From Pacificibacter maritimus (lineage in GTDB: Bacteria; Pseudomonadota; Alphaproteobacteria; Rhodobacterales; Rhodobacteraceae): a stretch of 32,000 nucleotides of DNA. The stretch's first letter is position 1, and each line of letters begins with the position of its first letter. Below are positions 20,177-31,006 of the stretch, in pieces. Under the pieces are notes generated by a model that was given only the letters and a program-made list of their open reading frames with translations, was not told where the DNA came from and did not search any database. The stretch covers positions 418,031 to 450,030 of the forward strand of contig NZ_RKQK01000001.1 of assembly GCF_003814915.1 (NCBI RefSeq), given 5' to 3'. Both the position numbers and the translations under genes were made by a program.

Positions 20177-21178
20177 TTAGGCGTAAATGTCTGTCCAAAG
20201 CTCTTCAAGGGCAGGCTCTGGGCTGGTTTTTGCAAATTCTGCTGAGGCGTTCACCACGGCTTTGATCTCTTTGTCGATCGCTTTGAGATCATCCTCGGAA
20301 GCATGCTTGCCTGTCAAAAGCAAAGACCGCACCGCTTCGATTGGATCGCGCTCGTCTTTCATCTTTTGCACTTCTTCGCGTGAACGGTATTTTGCAGGAT
20401 CTGACATAGAGTGACCGCGGTAACGGTATGTTTTCACTTCCAAAATATAGGGGCCTTTGCCTGCACGGCAATGCGCCACAGCTTTTTCAGAGGCTTCTTT
20501 GACCGCCAAAACATCCATACCGTCTACTTCTTCGCCTTTGATACCGTAGGCTGCGCCACGTTCCCAAAGTGATGGAGATTTGGTTGAGCGCTGCACGGAT
20601 GTACCCATGGCGTATTGGTTGTTTTCAATGACAAAAATCACTGGAAGATCCCAAAGCATCGCCATGTTGTAGGTCTCGTAAACCTGCCCTTGGTTGGCCG
20701 CGCCATCGCCGAAGTAGGCGAATGTCACATTGTCATTGCCTTTGTATTTGTCAGAAAACGCAAGACCCGCACCCAGTGGCACCTGTGCACCCACGATACC
20801 GTGGCCGCCGTAGAAATGTTTCTCTTTCGAGAACATATGCATGGAGCCGCCTTTGCCTTTTGAATAGCCGCCTTCGCGACCCGTCAATTCGGCCATCACC
20901 CCGTCAGGGTTCATCCCGCATGCCAACATGTGGCCGTGGTCGCGGTAAGATGTGATGCGCTTGTCACCTTCTTTGGTGGCAGCTTCCAAGCCTACAACCA
21001 CGGCTTCTTGGCCGATGTAGAGGTGACAAAAGCCACCGATTAAACCCATGCCATATAATTGGCCCGCTTTTTCTTCAAAGCGGCGGATCAGGAGCATGTC
21101 CTTGTAATAGGCAAGCAATTCGTCTTTTGATACATTCGCTTTGCTCGCGGAATTTGCGGTGGTTTTCTTGGGGGCCAT
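20177..21178 (-). CDS. pdhA: Pyruvate dehydrogenase E1 alpha subunit
   Basis: 333 aa with FCHLYIGQEAV, the TPP motif GDGAANQG and YRYRGHSMSDP. A strong SD (GGAGGAGG, complement of 21186-21193) precedes the start. Confidence 0.93.
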   Translation of the reverse strand: MAPKKTTANSASKANVSKDELLAYYKDMLLIRRFEEKAGQLYGMGLIGGFCHLYIGQEAVVVGLEAATKEGDKRITSYRDHGHMLACGMNPDGVMAELTGREGGYSKGKGGSMHMFSKEKHFYGGHGIVGAQVPLGAGLAFSDKYKGNDNVTFAYFGDGAANQGQVYETYNMAMLWDLPVIFVIENNQYAMGTSVQRSTKSPSLWERGAAYGIKGEEVDGMDVLAVKEASEKAVAHCRAGKGPYILEVKTYRYRGHSMSDPAKYRSREEVQKMKDERDPIEAVRSLLLTGKHASEDDLKAIDKEIKAVVNASAEFAKTSPEPALEELWTDIYA

Positions 21179-21202
21179 GCGGCGTCCTCCTCCAAAATCG
21201 CA

Positions 21203-21228
21203 GATATAGTTTAGTATTAAACTATATC
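21203..21228. promoter_or_regulatory. Perfect 11-bp inverted repeat 25-50 nt upstream of the pdhA ATG (candidate operator or 5'-UTR hairpin)
   Basis: GATATAGTTTA-GTAT-TAAACTATATC. The arms are exact reverse complements. Confidence 0.5.
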
Positions 21229-21347
21229 ATAAAGCAGTTTGAATGGAATTGCACGGATAAATTGCAGTTCGTTTGCTTGGTCTGGCCGCATACGGGTGCA
21301 AGCCTATGGAAATGTTTAATTTTTCAGGGATTAAATAGCGAGATTGG

Positions 21348-21386
21348 ATTCGCTAAGGCTGCGTTTTACGGCAAGCCTTAGCGAAT
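21348..21386 (-). other. 13-bp perfect inverted repeat overlapping the ftsB stop codon
   Basis: ATTCGCTAAGGCT (21348-21360), a 13-nt loop, then AGCCTTAGCGAAT (21374-21386). The ftsB stop (complement of 21378-21380) lies inside the right arm. No U-tract follows on the minus strand. Confidence 0.5.
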
Positions 21387-21680
21387 GACCAACTCATCGG
21401 CGCGCACATATCCCAAGACGTCTCGAGCTTGTTCGTCGAGTAGGTCTAGATCTAAGTATCCGTCAGACATGCGCAAAGTTTTATTGCGCATGACTTCCAA
21501 ATTTATCGCAAGCCGATCACTCTTCTCGTGTAGGTCTTCAAGCTCCGCCTCAATTTGAATGCGACGGAACAGCCCGTACTCACCTTGCACTGCAGCAAAG
21601 GTGAAGTAACCGCCCAATGTGACGATTACGGCTGTATATATCAGAACAGCGAGAGGGGGACGTTTGCGATTGGACGCCAT
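21378..21680 (-). CDS. ftsB: Septum formation initiator family protein (FtsB/DivIC)
   Basis: 100 aa with a single N-terminal TM segment (LAVLIYTAVIVTLGGYFTFAAV), a coiled coil, and the typical C-terminus (LDLDLLDEQARDVLGYVRADELVI). Confidence 0.85.
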   Translation of the reverse strand: MASNRKRPPLAVLIYTAVIVTLGGYFTFAAVQGEYGLFRRIQIEAELEDLHEKSDRLAINLEVMRNKTLRMSDGYLDLDLLDEQARDVLGYVRADELVIR

Positions 21681-21757
21681 GATAGGGGGTTGCCTGTAGT
21701 TTACTGCTCACACGGCCACCTCTTATGGGTGATCCGTTTGAAGACTATGCCATAGGC

Positions 21758-21837
21758 GAATCGCTTTGTGAATCCCTTTTCGAATCACAACATCATTTTT
21801 TTTATCAGCACGGTGCATCAGATTCGTGTTTGGAATC
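21758..21837. promoter_or_regulatory. Cluster of five GANTC (CcrM methylation) sites in the ftsB upstream region
   Basis: GAATC at 21758, 21770 and 21782; GATTC at 21821; GAATC at 21833. The spacings are 12, 12, 39 and 12 nt. Confidence 0.5.
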
Positions 21838-21860
21838 AGAGTGTTAACAGGTCACCCTGA

Positions 21861-21905
21861 AAAAGCAAAACGGGACACAGCATATAGATGCGCGCCCCGT
21901 TTTTC
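21861..21905 (-). terminator. Probable terminator of the aldolase gene
   Basis: On the minus strand: AACGGGGCGCGCAT, loop CTAT, ATGCTGTGTCCCGTT, then TTGCTTTT. The helix is imperfect, with G-U pairs. Confidence 0.45.
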
Positions 21906-21924
21906 CGACTAAATGTTGTAGCTC

Positions 21925-22818
21925 TTATCCCGCAACAGAGGCCGCATGGATTTCACTGGTTGTTGCATTTAAGATAGCATCAAAATCTGTATCGGCTTGT
22001 TTGGCACTTAGCCCTTCGATCAAAGCGCGTGAGAAAGACGCGATCATGCCTGTGTTTAGCGCCAATTTTGCGTTGGCTTCCTCACGGGAATAACCACCAG
22101 ACAGTGACACAACTTTCAAAACACGCGGGTGGTCCACCAAGGGTTTGTAAAAATTCGGCTCAGTCGGCAAAGACACTTTCAACATCACCTGTTTGTTGGG
22201 GGCCAGCGCATCAAGTTGCGTCAAGATTTCTTCGCGCAAGATGGCTTCTGCTTCGGCTTTGTCTTTGATCGTGATTGTGACCTCTGGTTCAAGCATCGGC
22301 ATTAAACCTGCTTTGATCACCTGTTCGCCGATTTCAAATTGCTGCGCCACAACGGCTTTGATGCCCTCACGATTGGCCGCATTCACGACAGAGCGTTCTT
22401 TGGTGCCGAAAACGCCCAAATTGGCTGCGCGCGCCAGAAGATCATCCAAATCAGGATTGGGCTTCATCAATTGCACGCCGTTTTCTTCGGCTTCCAAGCC
22501 TTTGTCGATTTTTAAAAACGGCACGATGCCTTTGTCTTCAAACAGATATTTTGGGGTTGGTTTGCCCGCGACATCGCGATCCATTGTCATTTCAAACAAG
22601 ATCGCGCCGATCACTTTATCGGAAGTAAAAGACGACGACTGCATGATGCGCGACCGCATTGCGTGGATCATGTCAAACATTTCGCTATCGCCGTTGTACT
22701 CATTCGGCTCAATGCCGTATTGCGCCAATGCTTTCGGGGTGGAGCCTCCAGATTGGTCAAGCGCTGCGATAAAACCTTGGCCATCACGGATTTTGGCGGT
22801 CATTTCTTGGATCGACAT
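21925..22818 (-). CDS. fba: Fructose-bisphosphate aldolase, class I
   Basis: GFIAALDQSGGSTPKAL is the typical class I FBA N-terminus. I prefer the ATG at 22818, which has AGGA 5 nt upstream. The longest ORF starts at 22830 (4 codons more). Confidence 0.9.
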   Translation of the reverse strand: MSIQEMTAKIRDGQGFIAALDQSGGSTPKALAQYGIEPNEYNGDSEMFDMIHAMRSRIMQSSSFTSDKVIGAILFEMTMDRDVAGKPTPKYLFEDKGIVPFLKIDKGLEAEENGVQLMKPNPDLDDLLARAANLGVFGTKERSVVNAANREGIKAVVAQQFEIGEQVIKAGLMPMLEPEVTITIKDKAEAEAILREEILTQLDALAPNKQVMLKVSLPTEPNFYKPLVDHPRVLKVVSLSGGYSREEANAKLALNTGMIASFSRALIEGLSAKQADTDFDAILNATTSEIHAASVAG

Positions 22819-22906
22819 GGGAGTCCTCATTGCATTTATGCCCCTTTGGGGCGGGATCAGGGAATTTCTAGATTTGCTTAGCGCTGCTTTGACAGTGGCG
22901 CAATTC

Positions 22907-22962
22907 TGATGGCGCTAACAAAAAAAATGGTTGCGCTAACTGTTGCTCTGTTATCGCTAACA
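22907..22962. promoter_or_regulatory. Three tandem LacI-type palindromic operator candidates upstream of fba at 21-bp phasing
   Basis: TGATGGCGCTAACA (22907-22920), TGGTTGCGCTAACT (22928-22941) and TGTTATCGCTAACA (22949-22962). They match the idealised palindrome TGTTAGCGCTAACA at 12/14, 11/14 and 13/14. Confidence 0.5.
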
Positions 22963-23032
22963 CATTGTTCATACAGGTATTTTTGCAAAACAAATTTTGC
23001 ATCATTGGCTGTCATTCGGGGGCGCTAGCCGC

Positions 23033-26931: not shown

Positions 26932-27003
26932 TGCAATTTTTATCCATATTAAGGGCTAGCAATGCCTGATATATCTGGCTCAGCGCCAAAGGGAAAGAGA
27001 GTC

Positions 27004-28101
27004 ATGACGGTGAAAAAACAAGTAGAGCCGATTTGGATCGCAGGTTGTATGTCTGGCACCTCTTTGGATGGGGTTGATGTGGCGCTTTTGCGCACGGATG
27101 GCATTGATATTTTTGAGTTTGGCGACAGCACATTTCGCCCATATAGCGTGGATGAACAGTCGCTTTTGCGTGACCAGTTGGGACTGTGGCAGGCCAGTGA
27201 CGCGGCCGTCGAATTGATTGAGACCGCCCATGCCGAAGCGCTATCAGCATTGCAAGGCTTTGAAATGGTTGGATTTCATGGGCAAACCTTTGCGCATGAT
27301 CCGCGTGGGCTTGGCACCTATCAAGCGGGGAATGGTGCGGTGTTGGCGGAAGTTTTGCAACAAACGGTTGTCTGGGATTTTCGCAGCAATGATGTGCAAA
27401 TGGGCGGGCAGGGCGCGCCTTTGGCCCCGTTTTTCCACCATGCTTGCGCGCGTTATATCAAGGCCACGGCGCCGCTTGTGTTTTTAAATTTAGGCGGTGT
27501 GGGCAATCTGACTTGGGTCGACCCCAGCATCGATGATCCTGCGCAGACTGGCGCTTTGTTGGCCTTTGACACGGGGCCAGCCAATGCGCCGATCAATGAT
27601 TTATGCATGGCGCGTTTGGGGAAATCTTTTGATGATAACGGCGATTTGGCAGCTTCTGGTCAGGTGGATGCGGCGCTTTTAGATCAGTTTATGCAACACG
27701 CCTATTTCATGAAGATGCCGCCTAAGTCCTTAGATAGAAATGATTTTCACGATATTTTGACGCAGGTCGAAAGCCTGAGTGATCAAGATGCCGCCGCGAC
27801 CTTAACAGCGATGGCTGCCGCATCTGTGGCGCAAGCGATGGACCATTGCCCAAGCCCACCTGCGCGGATTTTGGTGTCGGGGGGCGGCAGTCGAAACGCG
27901 ACATTGATGGCAATGATTGCTGCAGGCGTGGATTGCGCCGTCGCGCCCATCGAAACTGTGGGTTTGGACGGCGATATGCTTGAAGCCCAAGCCTTTGCCT
28001 ATCTTGCCATGCGGGTCAAACGCGGTCTGCCGACAAGCTGCCCCAGCACCACAGGCGTCGCGGCTGCCATTGGCGGCGGGCGGATTTCAAAGCCCGATTA
28101 A
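27004..28101 (+). CDS. anmK: Anhydro-N-acetylmuramic acid kinase
   Basis: [14 protein letters not shown] near the N-terminus and the GGG..N C-terminal motif ([10 protein letters not shown]). ATG 27004 is preferred because it leaves a 72-nt divergent spacer with tyrS. The longest ORF starts at 26962. Confidence 0.88.
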
Positions 28102-28181: not shown

Positions 28182-28213
28182 TTAGGGGGAATTTTTCAGA
28201 AAACTCCCCCTAA
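28182..28213 (+). terminator. Long hairpin/terminator after anmK, marking the left edge of the AT-rich islet
   Basis: TTAGGGGGA-A-TTTT, loop TCAG, AAAA-C-TCCCCCTAA. This gives 13 bp with one mismatch, followed by GGTTTTC. Confidence 0.6.
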
Positions 28214-28358
28214 GGTTTTCACGTTATGAAATCAGTGCGCCATCATATCGTGCTTGATCTCTTCGCCAGACAGGGCTGCCGTAAGGTAATGTATCCCAGA
28301 CTTTTGCTGGGGAGTTTACGGGAAAAATATGTTTTTCCCCGCTGGGGTGGTTTTGGGT

Positions 28359-29426
28359 CTAGAAAGGGATCTCCGAGTAGGGGATCGAGGGTTGCTTACT
28401 GGGGTCGTCCCAATCTGTGAAGTCTAGGATGTCATCAAGTAAAATAGGACTGACCGTTCCTGAAAGGTTGTCTGACCAGAACTTTTTACGCTCTAACCAA
28501 GTCCCTTCTTGGTTTCTTTCAACAATATGAATATTGGTTTCGGGAGAGCGCTTTTTGAGTAAGTCGTTCAGGTGGCTATCAGCCCCACCATACCCAAAAA
28601 GGATGATTTCGTCAGCTTCTCGGATACACTTTGGCAACCGAACCTCCCAATAATCTTTGAGTACATCGCAGCTCTCAATGAGCTGGAGCTTTAAACCTGT
28701 TGGCCCAAGGATAATCTGATTTTTCCCTTCAGCATTCTTTGGAATTGGTAGGTTATCTCTGGTCCGCTTTGCTGATACTCCATCGTCCTTTTTATAAAAT
28801 AGGGGAGTGCCATGTAGATGAAGGTATGTTCCTCTTGGGTTTTTGCTATTGTACCAGTTAAAGGTTTTGGGGGTATATGATGTTTGAAAGCCGTCACCTA
28901 AAGATGTTTCATCTACTTTTGCTCTGCATAGTGGAAAGGCTTTTCCGGTGACATTTTGGCGATTGAATGGGGCATACAATAAGGTGTCATAGTTAAGTGT
29001 TGCTACATGGCTTCGGGATTTGAAAATATAGTCAATCAATGGTTGAGTGAATGTCCGCCATAGCGCTTCTTGGGGTGGATCAAATTGAAATTCATGAAAA
29101 TAGTGTGCAACTGCATAGATGTACTTTTCTAGCAGGCTTGGAAATTGAGCAGCATTTGTATTCAGCCAATGACTAAGTGTCTCTGGTTCAATGCTCAATT
29201 TCAACATTGAATGGCCTATGAGTGCCGTATATGCAGAACGAAGATCAGCCTCTGATGTTGGGCCGATTGCTGCGTCAAAACCTTTCAGCGATGCGATGAT
29301 TTCTTTTTCATTTTCGTCAAATAAGTCGCTACCCCAAACTGATGTCATGGCCGCTTGAAGTTGAAAATAGTCATTGTCTAGGGCGCGTCCTAAACCGTTT
29401 CCGAATACGATTAGCTTTCTGTTCAT
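28359..29426 (-). CDS. Orphan SIR2_2/DUF4917/AbiH-like Rossmann-fold protein (candidate NADase-type anti-phage effector)
   Basis: 355-aa ORF in a visibly AT-rich segment. Ordered motifs: IVFGNGLGRAL (6-16), ATLNYDTLLY (142-151), YLHLHG (201-206) and ILFGYGGADSHLNDLL (275-290). GGGGA lies just upstream of the ATG. The family call comes from remembered motif patterns, not a search. Confidence 0.8.
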   Translation of the reverse strand: MNRKLIVFGNGLGRALDNDYFQLQAAMTSVWGSDLFDENEKEIIASLKGFDAAIGPTSEADLRSAYTALIGHSMLKLSIEPETLSHWLNTNAAQFPSLLEKYIYAVAHYFHEFQFDPPQEALWRTFTQPLIDYIFKSRSHVATLNYDTLLYAPFNRQNVTGKAFPLCRAKVDETSLGDGFQTSYTPKTFNWYNSKNPRGTYLHLHGTPLFYKKDDGVSAKRTRDNLPIPKNAEGKNQIILGPTGLKLQLIESCDVLKDYWEVRLPKCIREADEIILFGYGGADSHLNDLLKKRSPETNIHIVERNQEGTWLERKKFWSDNLSGTVSPILLDDILDFTDWDDPSKQPSIPYSEIPF

Positions 29427-29505
29427 ATGTCCCCGGTGAAATTAAACTTTTGTTATCTGTTCAGCGTAGTGGGGTAAAAAGTGAACATCAAGTCGTTGCG
29501 CATGC

Positions 29506-29534
29506 AAAAAGCCCCACCAAATGGCGGGGCTTTT
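29506..29534 (-). terminator. Rho-independent (bidirectional-looking) terminator of eno, marking the right edge of the islet
   Basis: On the minus strand: GCCCCGCC, loop ATTT, GGTGGGGC, then TTTTTGC. A-runs and T-runs flank both sides. Confidence 0.75.

Positions 29535-29609: not shown

Positions 29610-31006
<1,397 letters not shown>

Follow-up and report, generated by a model that had tools for sequence, protein, structure and literature searches.

The window analysed here, a 32-kb stretch of the Pacificibacter maritimus genome, contains a solitary open reading frame between anmK and eno whose 355-aa product, judged by structural and motif criteria, is predicted to adopt the immune-type SIR2 (SIRim) fold, its NAD site being intact and invariant. 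This solitary, AT-rich gene is patchily distributed and has diversified into alleles at one chromosomal position; its carriers include prophages, integrative elements and a plasmid. As a small, partner-less, predicted NAD-degrading SIR2 protein with relatives on prophages and plasmids, it is a good candidate for a one-gene anti-phage defence, and on balance it probably constitutes a self-contained NAD-depleting abortive-infection system made of one protein. The defence reading is weakened by the housekeeping neighbourhoods of the family, the lack of a call by any defence model, its absence from deposited phages and BFVD, and the lack of a sensor domain and of a clear promoter. The features of the locus are the following:

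28359..29426, minus strand: CDS of the predicted stand-alone SIRim-type SIR2-like protein, 355 aa, ATG start (ORF, homology, model)
29388..29408, minus strand: VFGNGLG codons (residues 7-13), glycine-rich loop after β1 (conservation)
28986..29000, minus strand: TLNYD codons (residues 143-147; invariant residues, alignment to PsSIR2)
28809..28820, minus strand: HLHG codons (residues 203-206) with the putative catalytic His205 (conservation, PsSIR2 alignment)
28572..28598, minus strand: FGYGGADSH codons (residues 277-285), distal NAD-binding motif GYGGxDxHLN (conservation, PsSIR2 alignment)
29016..29360, minus strand: codons of the variable helical cap insertion (approximately residues 23-137; DSSP helices, column entropy)
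29427..29505, minus strand: 5' untranslated/promoter region, from the eno terminator to the start codon (sequence)
29506..29534, minus strand: eno intrinsic terminator hairpin, inverted repeat from about 29507 (folding and inverted repeat)
28318..28342, minus strand: hairpin about 17 nt past the stop codon, CGGGGAAAAA/UUUUUCCCG (folding)
28182..28213, plus strand: anmK terminator hairpin, right boundary of the islet (folding and inverted repeat)

The ORF product is 100% identical to P. maritimus EDD53_0428, and the ATG start is supported by the N-terminus, MNRKLIVFGNGLG, which aligns with all homologues. On either side lie the AnmK gene (26962-28101, plus strand; PF03702 at 2.6e-67) and the enolase gene (29610-30887, minus strand), and the ORF list of the interval holds no further ORF between the SIR2-like gene and anmK or eno. 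The eno terminator (-23.4 kcal/mol, z -4.15, followed by UUUUU) is the conserved left cassette boundary in all eno-linked genomes, and the anmK hairpin (-19.2 kcal/mol, z -2.8) folds strongly on the minus strand too. The hairpin past the stop codon (-12.1 kcal/mol, z -2.7) is not followed by a U-tract; it is possibly a 3' end or a stabiliser. A Shine-Dalgarno-like GGGGA precedes the ATG by 3 nt. No consensus sigma-70 promoter was detected upstream of the gene by a consensus scan that also missed both real hairpins; the Celeribacter cassettes carry TTGACA-17-GAAAAT at the place equivalent to 29427..29505. Site-specific integration or transposition at the anmK-eno locus was ruled out, as neither a tRNA, flanking direct repeats nor a target-site duplication was found at the locus, nor an integrase in the window.

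The four motifs that the original prediction had listed in order (VFGNGLG, LNYD, HLHG and FGYGGADSH) are all present in that order and are conserved in an alignment of 52 homologues, whose identity to the query is 31-80% (mostly 33-41%). Residues N145, D147, H205, G278, Y279, G281, D283, H285 and N287 are invariant, as are T143, Y146, L204 and G206, while conservation of G9, N10, G11 and G13 is 90% or higher. By analogy with sirtuins, the glycine loop is likely to bind the NAD phosphates. In a profile alignment, TLNYD, HLHG and GYGGxDxHLN align with TTNYD, KLHGS and GYSYKDQHIN of PsSIR2, the only PDB sequence-profile match in which TxNYD, LHG and GYxxxDxHxN are aligned; a PDB search with the single query sequence was unproductive. 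TLNYD corresponds to TQN[IV]D of sirtuins, and in SaSir2 and ThsA catalysis depends on the Asn/His dyad (PMC11514289; 10.1101/2024.09.18.613514).

The AlphaFold (AF2) model of the protein (pLDDT 92.1, pTM 0.91) has as its best Foldseek match in the PDB the SIR2 subunit of SIR2-HerA/Nezha (8suw_B, E 2.5e-9, TM 0.57), a system whose structures are, over the full length of the protein, the nearest solved fold (8suw/8sub/8uae/8j4u; PsSIR2 8w9l; also PD-T7-2). The SIR2-HerA subunits are followed by Avs5 SIR2-STAND and then by sirtuins, the matches to which are weak (E at least 4.5e-3, TM 0.31-0.40). SIRim proteins are defined by a SIR2 Rossmann fold with at least seven β-strands, a variable helical loop after β1, the Asn/His pair and the lack of a Zn-binding Cys tetrad (Bonhomme et al., 10.1101/2024.09.18.613514). 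The model contains nine DSSP strand elements, with helices over residues 11-137 right after β1, and the Asn/His pair is supplied by the invariant N145 and H205. Cys prevails in just two columns of the alignment, which leaves no Zn-binding tetrad, and the cysteines of the query (167, 253 and 267) fall at none of the family columns where Cys predominates. The protein is equally no canonical sirtuin deacylase (CobB/SIRT), since the tetrad is missing and PF02146 matches neither the query nor the homologues. Alignment, profile alignment, AF2 model and Foldseek thus agree with the SIR2-like fold and Asn/His pair proposed at the outset. Mean column entropy is 2.38 in the helical cap versus 0.73-0.86 in the catalytic motifs, and the cap (about residues 23-137) may be regarded as a candidate sensor or regulatory surface; neither Pfam nor the AF2 model reveals a recognisable sensor domain in the 355-aa protein.

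The protein had also been likened to SIR2_2, DUF4917 and AbiH. Family-wide, there are matches to the first two but not to AbiH, and the query itself is below the SIR2_2 threshold. With 18.5 bits (E 0.0022) against SIR2_2 (PF13289), the query falls short of the gathering cut-off of 24.5 bits, whereas E<0.01 is reached by 48 of the 52 homologues (best 4.4e-13), many being precomputed as PF13289; the family is therefore SIR2_2-related and the window protein a divergent member of it. DUF4917 (PF16263) is matched by 31 of the 52 homologues at E<0.01 (best 6.7e-7), the query being without a match at E<=10. The AbiH model PF14253 matches neither the query (E<=10) nor any of the 52 homologues (E<0.01), and AbiH is not among the PADLOC matches; membership in AbiH was dropped for want of HMM support, and AbiH was kept as an architectural analogue only. 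Aga_SIR2 models give weak matches (~25 bits) in 47 of the 52 members, confined to the SIR2 core.

None of the models in PADLOC, NCBIfam and PHROGs calls the query protein. The best PADLOC match is PDC-S21 (PDLC04960/04961; E 1.6e-6 and 3.3e-6), likewise a single-gene candidate, whose two 336-position models are together collinear over most of the protein, but the score of ~25 bits is far under family-membership level. The PDC-S21 models match 43 of the 52 members (best 4.6e-11), prophage and plasmid homologues scoring no better, and the relation of the query to PDC-S21 is, as judged from these scores, distant. The family comprises 226 representatives at E<1e-30, and the best 150 of these are nearly all ~310-370 aa long or shorter fragments, without domain fusions. 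A literature search found no paper on PDC-S21, on DUF4917 with SIR2, on the E. coli homologue WP_001533280.1 or on any other family member. The gene is a one-gene candidate not yet in the defence catalogue searched (PADLOC), although a solitary SIR2-like architecture is known from AbiH; since no PADLOC model represents the family, defence censuses based on PADLOC would miss it.

The SIR2 subunit of SIR2-HerA is similar to the query in size (~340-400 aa), in its helical cap and in the lack of a Zn module, and is a proven NADase with the Asn/His dyad (PMC11514289). However, identity is only 14-17%, and no HerA ATPase is adjacent to the gene here or in 64 homologue contexts. The SIR2 subunit is autoinhibited without HerA and needs HerA assembly (PMC11514289), so that activation in the present HerA-less case would be intrinsic or phage-triggered; for the same reason a hidden unlinked partner is conceivable. 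The protein could then be a SIR2 NADase effector dependent on a signal or partner that resides elsewhere in the genome or in the phage (a second messenger, as for KomC and ThsA, or an unlinked ATPase, as for SIR2-HerA). This alternative, which we consider unlikely, fits the inactivity of the closest solved relatives in the absence of HerA (PMC11514289), the small-molecule gating of KomC, a SIR2-like-domain protein (PMC13434031), and the lack of a discernible sensor domain. Nevertheless, no partner recurs in the 64 contexts, and the gene travels by itself, both as a 1199-bp single-gene cassette and as a lone moron in prophages, a mobility that would make little sense for a protein dependent on an unlinked host partner.

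ThsA (Thoeris), DSR1/DSR2, SPARSA SIR2-APAZ/pAgo, Avs5 and KomC (Kongming) have the SIRim catalytic domain, and presumably the NAD+ depletion chemistry, in common with the query. Yet they possess a fused sensor (SLOG/Macro, a large C-terminal domain, APAZ or STAND) or an obligatory ThsB, pAgo or KomA/KomB, whereas the query family consists of a single domain (~310-370 aa in the best 150 of 226 representatives) with no conserved neighbour. The 355-aa single-domain protein has neither the C-terminal SLOG/Macro of Thoeris nor the large fused domain of DSR1/DSR2, Avs5 and SPARSA, and no TIR (ThsB) or Ago gene lies nearby. To our knowledge, every mechanistically understood bacterial SIR2 defence system gates its NADase by a fused sensor or a partner protein. 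AbiH, a protein of ~350 aa known since 1996, is, of the bacterial systems that have been named, the only one to set a precedent for the architecture, but it has no HMM-level sequence similarity to the query family. This lactococcal protein is a single-gene, sirtuin-like abortive infection protein found on ICEs and is grouped with SIRim (PMC13064643; 10.1101/2024.09.18.613514); its mechanism is unknown (PMC13064643), and it therefore offers no mechanistic template.

How a SIR2 protein might act without a partner is plausibly illustrated by vertebrate FAM118B/FAM118A. FAM118B (SIRanc) is a stand-alone, single-domain SIRim protein (cryo-EM construct of residues 24-334) annotated as SIR2_2, with a catalytic N163/H206 pair and no Zn module, and its NAD processing requires self-assembly into filaments (PMC12700824; 10.1101/2024.09.18.613514). 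Unlike the query, these proteins are eukaryotic, and they are absent from its top Foldseek matches. The original prediction knew of no characterised system of exactly this architecture, a view superseded by the precedents of AbiH (PMC13064643) and FAM118B (PMC12700824).

Characterised bacterial SIRim proteins are antiphage NADases (10.1101/2024.09.18.613514). In an abortive-infection system of the kind we favour, the SIR2-like protein would be kept inactive in uninfected cells and would be switched on by phage infection, probably through direct recognition of a phage product by the fast-evolving helical cap or surface regions, and also or alternatively by self-assembly into an oligomer. The active protein would then hydrolyse NAD+ at the N145/D147/H205 site, and the loss of NAD+ would starve both phage and cell. 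We infer protection as such, and likewise its triggering by phage, oligomerisation, which surface acts as sensor, and NADase chemistry as opposed to ADP-ribosyl transfer. If a ~350-aa SIR2 protein does protect alone, it would reveal how little a SIR2 domain needs in order to sense infection, and could clarify the AbiH and vertebrate FAM118 proteins.

The stand-alone architecture claimed for the gene held up in a wider sample: no partner is found in the interval, and all-versus-all clustering of neighbouring genes, first for 16 contexts and later for 64, yielded no recurrent partner gene beyond local synteny. HerA, TIR, SLOG, Ago, STAND and KomA/B partners were not found in Pfam-annotated neighbourhoods or by Pfam on the immediate upstream ORFs. 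The sampled chromosomal copies reside among housekeeping genes (eno, pncB, thyX, ABC-F and pyrB) and not in defence islands; the gene adjoins eno in 6 genomes, and the Loktanella copy is directly downstream of NAPRTase (NAD salvage). Proximity to eno and to NAPRTase, together with housekeeping neighbours elsewhere and chromosomal contexts that are not defence islands, would be in keeping with an accessory NAD-dependent physiological enzyme, such as a protein ADP-ribosyltransferase, a deacylase or an NAD-turnover enzyme tied to central or NAD metabolism. We find such a role improbable, since the protein displays SIRim features without the Zn-binding module, by means of which sirtuins bind acyl-lysine substrates (10.1101/2024.09.18.613514). 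Moreover, the gene is missing from most relatives, a near-identical strain included, is foreign in composition in its hosts, has alleles that diverge to an extreme degree at one locus, occurs on prophages and a plasmid, and has upstream neighbours that are mutually unrelated according to Pfam.

As the original prediction anticipated, homologues do occur in mobile contexts, namely prophages, the vicinity of serine recombinases and a transposon-rich plasmid. The 21 IMG/VR loci place them beside replication-O/Ren-like genes, integrases and a methyltransferase. In E. coli, the homologue WP_001533280.1 lies beside hokD in a Qin-like prophage and is present in 46 complete genomes, which makes the defence hypothesis testable with standard coliphage panels. 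Large serine recombinases are found near the homologue in 4 loci, CHAT and T5orf172 neighbours in 2, and the Marinobacter plasmid copy lies between ISL3, Tn3 and IS21 transposases. Such prophage, recombinase and plasmid settings, and the occasional CHAT or T5orf172 neighbour, hint at an association with defence that the sampled chromosomal contexts do not show. No homologue was detected in deposited phage genomes (GenBank phage tblastn) or in BFVD (Foldseek). The prophage accessory slots beside hokD and Ren-like genes and the transposon-rich plasmid surroundings might point to a selfish or phage-serving module, that is, an addiction toxin stabilising its carrier or a prophage gene steering host NAD for the phage. 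We attach little probability to this: no antitoxin-like small ORF is consistently adjacent in the 64 contexts, no mobile element is recognisable around most chromosomal copies, and the gene is absent from virulent and other deposited phage genomes. Besides, morons of this type in prophages as a rule mediate superinfection exclusion, itself a form of defence.

With a GC content of 0.431 (GC3 0.407), against 0.50-0.55 (GC3 0.51-0.62) for the neighbouring genes, the gene is the lowest-GC 1068-bp stretch of the 32-kb window (z = -4.5 relative to non-overlapping windows). The hand counts of G+C on which its foreign composition had first been noted (26, 26, 34 and 36 per 60) proved exact on recounting. 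In hosts with a GC of 0.52-0.60 the gene has 0.43-0.47, and homologue GC is below that of the flanks in 57 of 64 contexts. This deviation, together with a clean presence/absence indel in near-identical genomes, supports the horizontal or accessory character that had been proposed. Low GC, the lack of a clear promoter in the window copy and the sub-threshold Pfam score could also be taken as signs of a decaying, non-functional remnant of a horizontally acquired gene. That is very improbable given the intact, full-length frame, the confidently predicted fold, the invariance of catalytic and NAD-binding residues across homologues ~35% identical to the query, and the equally intact metagenomic homologue (P0002), which is 80% identical.

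At the anmK locus the gene is present in 1 of 80 species representatives, and it corresponds to a 1199-bp single-gene indel between genomes with 98% identical flanks. In four Celeribacter genomes and in Halocynthiibacter, the slot directly after the eno terminator is occupied by a diverged homologue, and this occupation of the same slot rules out a one-off recent insertion. Three deep allelic lineages, crossing genera, are found at the eno slot; the central ~840 bp of the gene are 30-58% identical between genomes whose eno genes are 97% identical, while the gene ends are ~90-98% identical, a pattern indicative of mosaic recombination. The clean indel at 98% identity, the mismatch between lineages and species, and the mosaic structure together rule out simple vertical inheritance. 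Conservation at this locus with host-like composition had been named in advance as grounds for refuting the prediction. This is half the case: the slot does recur, but nowhere does the composition resemble that of the host, and the gene occurs patchily.

A more speculative extension of the single-protein defence reading, which we offer tentatively and consider doubtful, is that of an uncatalogued family of self-sufficient ~330-aa SIR2 immune proteins that would combine sensing, through the hypervariable cap or surface, with NAD+ depletion in one domain. Their ancient allelic specificities at the post-eno slot would be swapped via the conserved motif-coding gene ends, making the slot an MHC-like polymorphic locus in marine Rhodobacterales, and the E. 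coli cousins would be prophage exclusion genes. With its deep recombining allelic lineages, the eno-anmK slot could offer a small natural setting in which to follow diversifying selection acting on a putative immune gene. The anmK-eno interval is itself no defence island: in 18 relatives the ORFs of this gap are mostly ordinary accessory genes (Cupin_5, GNAT, transporters and similar), and two of the ORFs match PDC-S31.

The SIR2-like gene that the original prediction placed alone between anmK and eno is an open reading frame of 355 aa with an ATG start, and the N-terminus of its product matches all homologues in the alignment residue for residue; a database protein from Pacificibacter maritimus is 100% identical to it. 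The two terminator hairpins said to bound the gene were both recovered, as inverted repeats I3 and I5, and neither is listed by a simple consensus scanner. Outside the anmK/eno pair lie tyrS, a cyclophilin gene and fur. The features of the region are:

26962-28101, plus strand: anmK (PF03702, 2.6e-67)
28182-28213: anmK terminator hairpin (I3; -19.2 kcal/mol on the plus strand; -20.6 kcal/mol, z -5.05, on the minus strand)
28359-29426, minus strand: SIR2-like open reading frame
29507-29534: eno terminator hairpin (I5; -23.4 kcal/mol, z -4.15), directly followed by UUUUU
29610-30887, minus strand: eno

The anmK hairpin folds better on the minus strand and may therefore act as a terminator for both convergent genes. 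A further hairpin (CGGGGAAAAA/UUUUUCCCG), devoid of a U-tract, is located at 28318-28342 on the minus strand, ~17 nt past the SIR2-like stop codon.

The gene has 43.1% GC and a GC3 of 0.41, compared with 50-55% and 0.51-0.62 for its neighbours, and is the lowest-GC 1068-bp stretch of the window (z -4.5); the four GC counts initially made by hand were exact on recount, and the observation as a whole held in every particular. Regardless of the host, GC of the gene lies at 43-47% and GC3 at 0.41-0.51 in each of the eight genomes examined, the hosts themselves having 52-60% GC and the neighbouring genes a GC3 of 0.61-0.80. Globally, GC content is below that of the flanks in 57 of 64 gene contexts, by 7.7 points on average. 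A second, weaker GC dip is found at 21000-23000 of the window (0.46-0.49, against about 0.52).

On its own, the window protein has no match in NCBIfam, PHROGs or the PDB sequence search, falls below the cut-off of Pfam SIR2_2 (18.5 against 24.5 bits) and retrieves only ~25-bit matches among PADLOC models (PDC-S21, a candidate defence system, and Aga_SIR2). Relatives are nevertheless detectable: 149 were found at E<=0.001, the 120 listed being 226-370 aa long, mostly about 320-370 aa. Across an alignment of 52 sequences (31-80% identity to the window protein, mostly 33-41%), SIR2_2 is matched by 48 members and DUF4917 by 31, as had been anticipated, while the expected relationship to AbiH was not borne out (0/52). 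Aga_SIR2 (47/52) and PDC-S21 (43/52) are matched widely, always weakly, and the scores of the prophage and plasmid homologues against PADLOC models do not exceed those of the window protein. An exhaustive profile search across 1.84 billion representative proteins yielded only 226 matches at E<1e-30; among the best 150, nearly all consist of a single domain of about 310-370 aa or are shorter fragments, so the family appears, among the matches listed, to be small, compact and unfused.

All four motifs initially recognised (VFGNGLG, LNYD, HLHG and FGYGGADSH) are conserved in the alignment. Residues E59, T143, N145, Y146, D147, Y151, D178, L204, H205, G206, K220, K246, G278, Y279, G281, D283, H285, N287 and W317 are invariant; that the gene is dead is extremely improbable. 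The three NAD-site motifs are the most conserved parts of the protein (column entropy 0.7-1.4), whereas the helical cap, like residues 153-198, 213-242 and 293-340, is highly variable (2.4-2.5).

An AlphaFold2 model built from the family alignment (pLDDT 92.1, pTM 0.91) has as its top PDB structure matches the SIR2 subunits of SIR2-HerA/Nezha complexes (E 2.5e-9, TM about 0.57), followed by the Avs5 SIR2-STAND protein and, weakly, human sirtuins. Profile search of PDB sequences gave PsSIR2 of SIR2-HerA as the sole match, pairing TLNYD with TTNYD, HLHG with KLHGS and GYGGxDxHLN with GYSYKDQHIN. The secondary structure of the model comprises 7 or more strand elements, with a long insertion of helices (residues 11-137) right behind the first strand, and no cysteine tetrad is present in the aligned family; strand count, helical insertion and lack of the tetrad are the features by which Bonhomme et al. 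separate immune SIR2 proteins (SIRim) from deacylating sirtuins (10.1101/2024.09.18.613514). The Asn/His catalytic dyad of such enzymes has been validated experimentally in ThsA (N112/H152), SIRanc (N163/H206) and SaSir2 (N226/H287) (10.1101/2024.09.18.613514; PMC11514289). Alignment and model together show a predicted SIRim-type NAD site that is intact in the window protein.

Those bacterial SIRim proteins that have been characterised consume NAD+, act against phages and stay off until infection; a change of oligomeric state or the formation of filaments is often part of activation, as ThsA, Avs5, SIR2-HerA and FAM118B illustrate (PMC12700824; PMC11514289; PMC13434031). We consider it somewhat probable that the window protein is a one-gene abortive-infection NADase. 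Such a protein would consume NAD+ when triggered by infection, and its variable cap and surface regions would be the likeliest surface for recognising the trigger.

In fold and motifs, the nearest known protein is the SIR2 subunit of SIR2-HerA, but HerA is missing here. In architecture it is AbiH, a single-gene, SIR2-like, ICE-borne system of unknown mechanism (PMC13064643) that shares no detectable sequence-profile similarity with the window protein. Vertebrate FAM118B is likewise a stand-alone SIRim, although one dependent on filament formation (PMC12700824), whereas PD-T7-2 consists of two genes (PMC9519451) and KomC is part of a system of three (PMC13434031). PDC-S21 is only a distant candidate, on which we found no publication. 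Our literature search found no paper on the present family, which would therefore seem to be uncatalogued within the SIRim antiphage-type NADases, with a minimal architecture so far seen otherwise only in AbiH. This would hardly surprise a specialist, since most SIRim proteins have already been argued to be immune (10.1101/2024.09.18.613514); still, PADLOC models lack the family, its E. coli representative makes testing easy, and allelic lineages that recombine at one fixed slot, as they do here after eno, are uncommon and appealing.

With AnmK as bait, we fetched 80 species-representative Rhodobacterales loci, P. maritimus not being among them. The tyrS-anmK pair is kept in every locus, and the anmK-eno interval ranges from 64, 80 and 163 bp (the empty sites L044, L055 and L079) to 5.7 kb (L014). 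Only one of the 80 loci, L005, carries a family member (sensitive search with 52 family queries), the gene thus being accessory. Fillers in other species include Cupin_5 (10 loci), GNAT acetyltransferases, DUF2238, a TRAP transporter, an aquaporin and a desaturase; these are ordinary accessory genes, and the interval was rejected as a defence island. Two of 56 gap ORFs match PADLOC PDC-S31 (E 7.7e-24), and DUF4238 is found on one gap ORF. The closest AnmK relative (83%; TyrS 94%) is in a MAG labelled Celeribacter sp. (JBLHXX010000105.1), the contig of which ends 314 bp past anmK.

The closest named relatives of the window protein occupy the same slot, as the first gene past the eno terminator and in the direction of eno:

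L081, Celeribacter halophilus: 49% identity
L083, Celeribacter sp.: 41% identity
L084, C. litoreus: 40% identity
L085, Halocynthiibacter sp.: 36% identity
L005, Celeribacter MAG

The proposed horizontal or accessory character of the islet is supported. The gene is AT-rich and absent from L006, a locus labelled C. halophilus with flanks 98% identical to those of L081, where 1199 bp holding this gene alone correspond to 66 bp and the break falls directly past the eno terminator; a one-off insertion is too simple, since the slot is also filled in Celeribacter and Halocynthiibacter. In L085 (7935-9466) only ~20 nt separate the eno terminator hairpin from the start of the SIR2-like gene, too few to hold a promoter of its own, and the stop codon runs into the start of the resident Cupin_5 gene, which suggests expression through read-through and translational coupling in this genome.

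The eno-linked genes have diversified into three deep lineages that do not follow genus boundaries (window and L081, 50% identity; L083 and L085, 55%; L084 and L005, 65%), and a Loktanella copy from another locus nests among them. Between L081 and L083, eno is 97% and the downstream genes are 95% identical, and the SIR2-like genes are alike at their ends (about 88-92% over the first ~40 nt, 95-98% over the last ~170 nt), whereas the ~840 bp centre (L081 8037-8877) is only 30-58% identical. This mosaic reflects allele replacement by recombination, the breakpoints lying close to the ends that encode GNGLG and GYGGxD, and that precisely the centre has been swapped is consistent with specificity being under selection. 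The window contains no tRNA, integrase or flanking direct repeats, so the gene most likely moves by exchange through homologous flanks.

All-versus-all clustering of 16 and then 64 contexts revealed no recurrent neighbour family beyond local synteny, as the predicted lack of a partner gene implied, and Pfam assigns unrelated functions to ten immediate upstream neighbours. The protein is, by gene context, apparently a genuine stand-alone one, and an effector dependent on an unlinked partner or signal is unlikely. Upstream neighbours at other loci include pncB/NAPRTase (Loktanella), ABC-F (Thioclava), thyX, a DUF2971 gene and ABC ATPases. In Loktanella ponticola (L082 6665-9023), the NAD-salvage gene pncB precedes the homologue by 44 nt in the same direction, which could be chance or a functional link of NAD breakdown with salvage. 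The eno and pncB adjacencies and the housekeeping neighbourhoods speak for a non-defence NAD-dependent enzyme, which we likewise regard as improbable next to an abortive-infection NADase.

Mobile elements also carry the family. It was not found in deposited phage genomes or BFVD, and is present on 21 IMG/VR viral or prophage contigs (7 protein clusters); a selfish or phage-serving module is a distinctly remote alternative to the defensive NADase. According to PHROGs, L096-type contigs have replication O-like and Ren-like exclusion genes just upstream and an HNH endonuclease ~1.4 kb downstream; the homologue adjoins an integrase in L091, adjoins a DNA methyltransferase in L092 (integrase ~2 kb off) and has a portal gene ~1.8 kb upstream in L088. 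Of 5,426 complete E. coli genomes, 46 carry the L096-type gene, in one copy each and annotated 'SIR2 family protein'; it comes in two sequence types, one >=99% and the other 80-90% identical to L096, and the E. coli homologue WP_001533280.1 is 32% identical to the window protein. In E. coli N1420 (L195 9102-10061) the gene belongs to a Qin-like lambdoid prophage, where it lies upstream of a Q-type antiterminator and is flanked by YdaT-family/DUF977 replication-region genes on one side and hokD-rem on the other; morons typically occupy a slot of this kind. Near the homologue, four metagenomic loci (L125, L128, L136 and L175) encode a large serine recombinase (Resolvase, Recombinase and Zn_ribbon_recom), and elsewhere a CHAT-domain protein (L155 4773-5822) or a T5orf172/MUG113 protein (L174 4697-5938) is encoded immediately upstream. 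The sole plasmid copy, on Marinobacter pMAQU01, sits amid ISL3, Tn3 and IS21 transposases.
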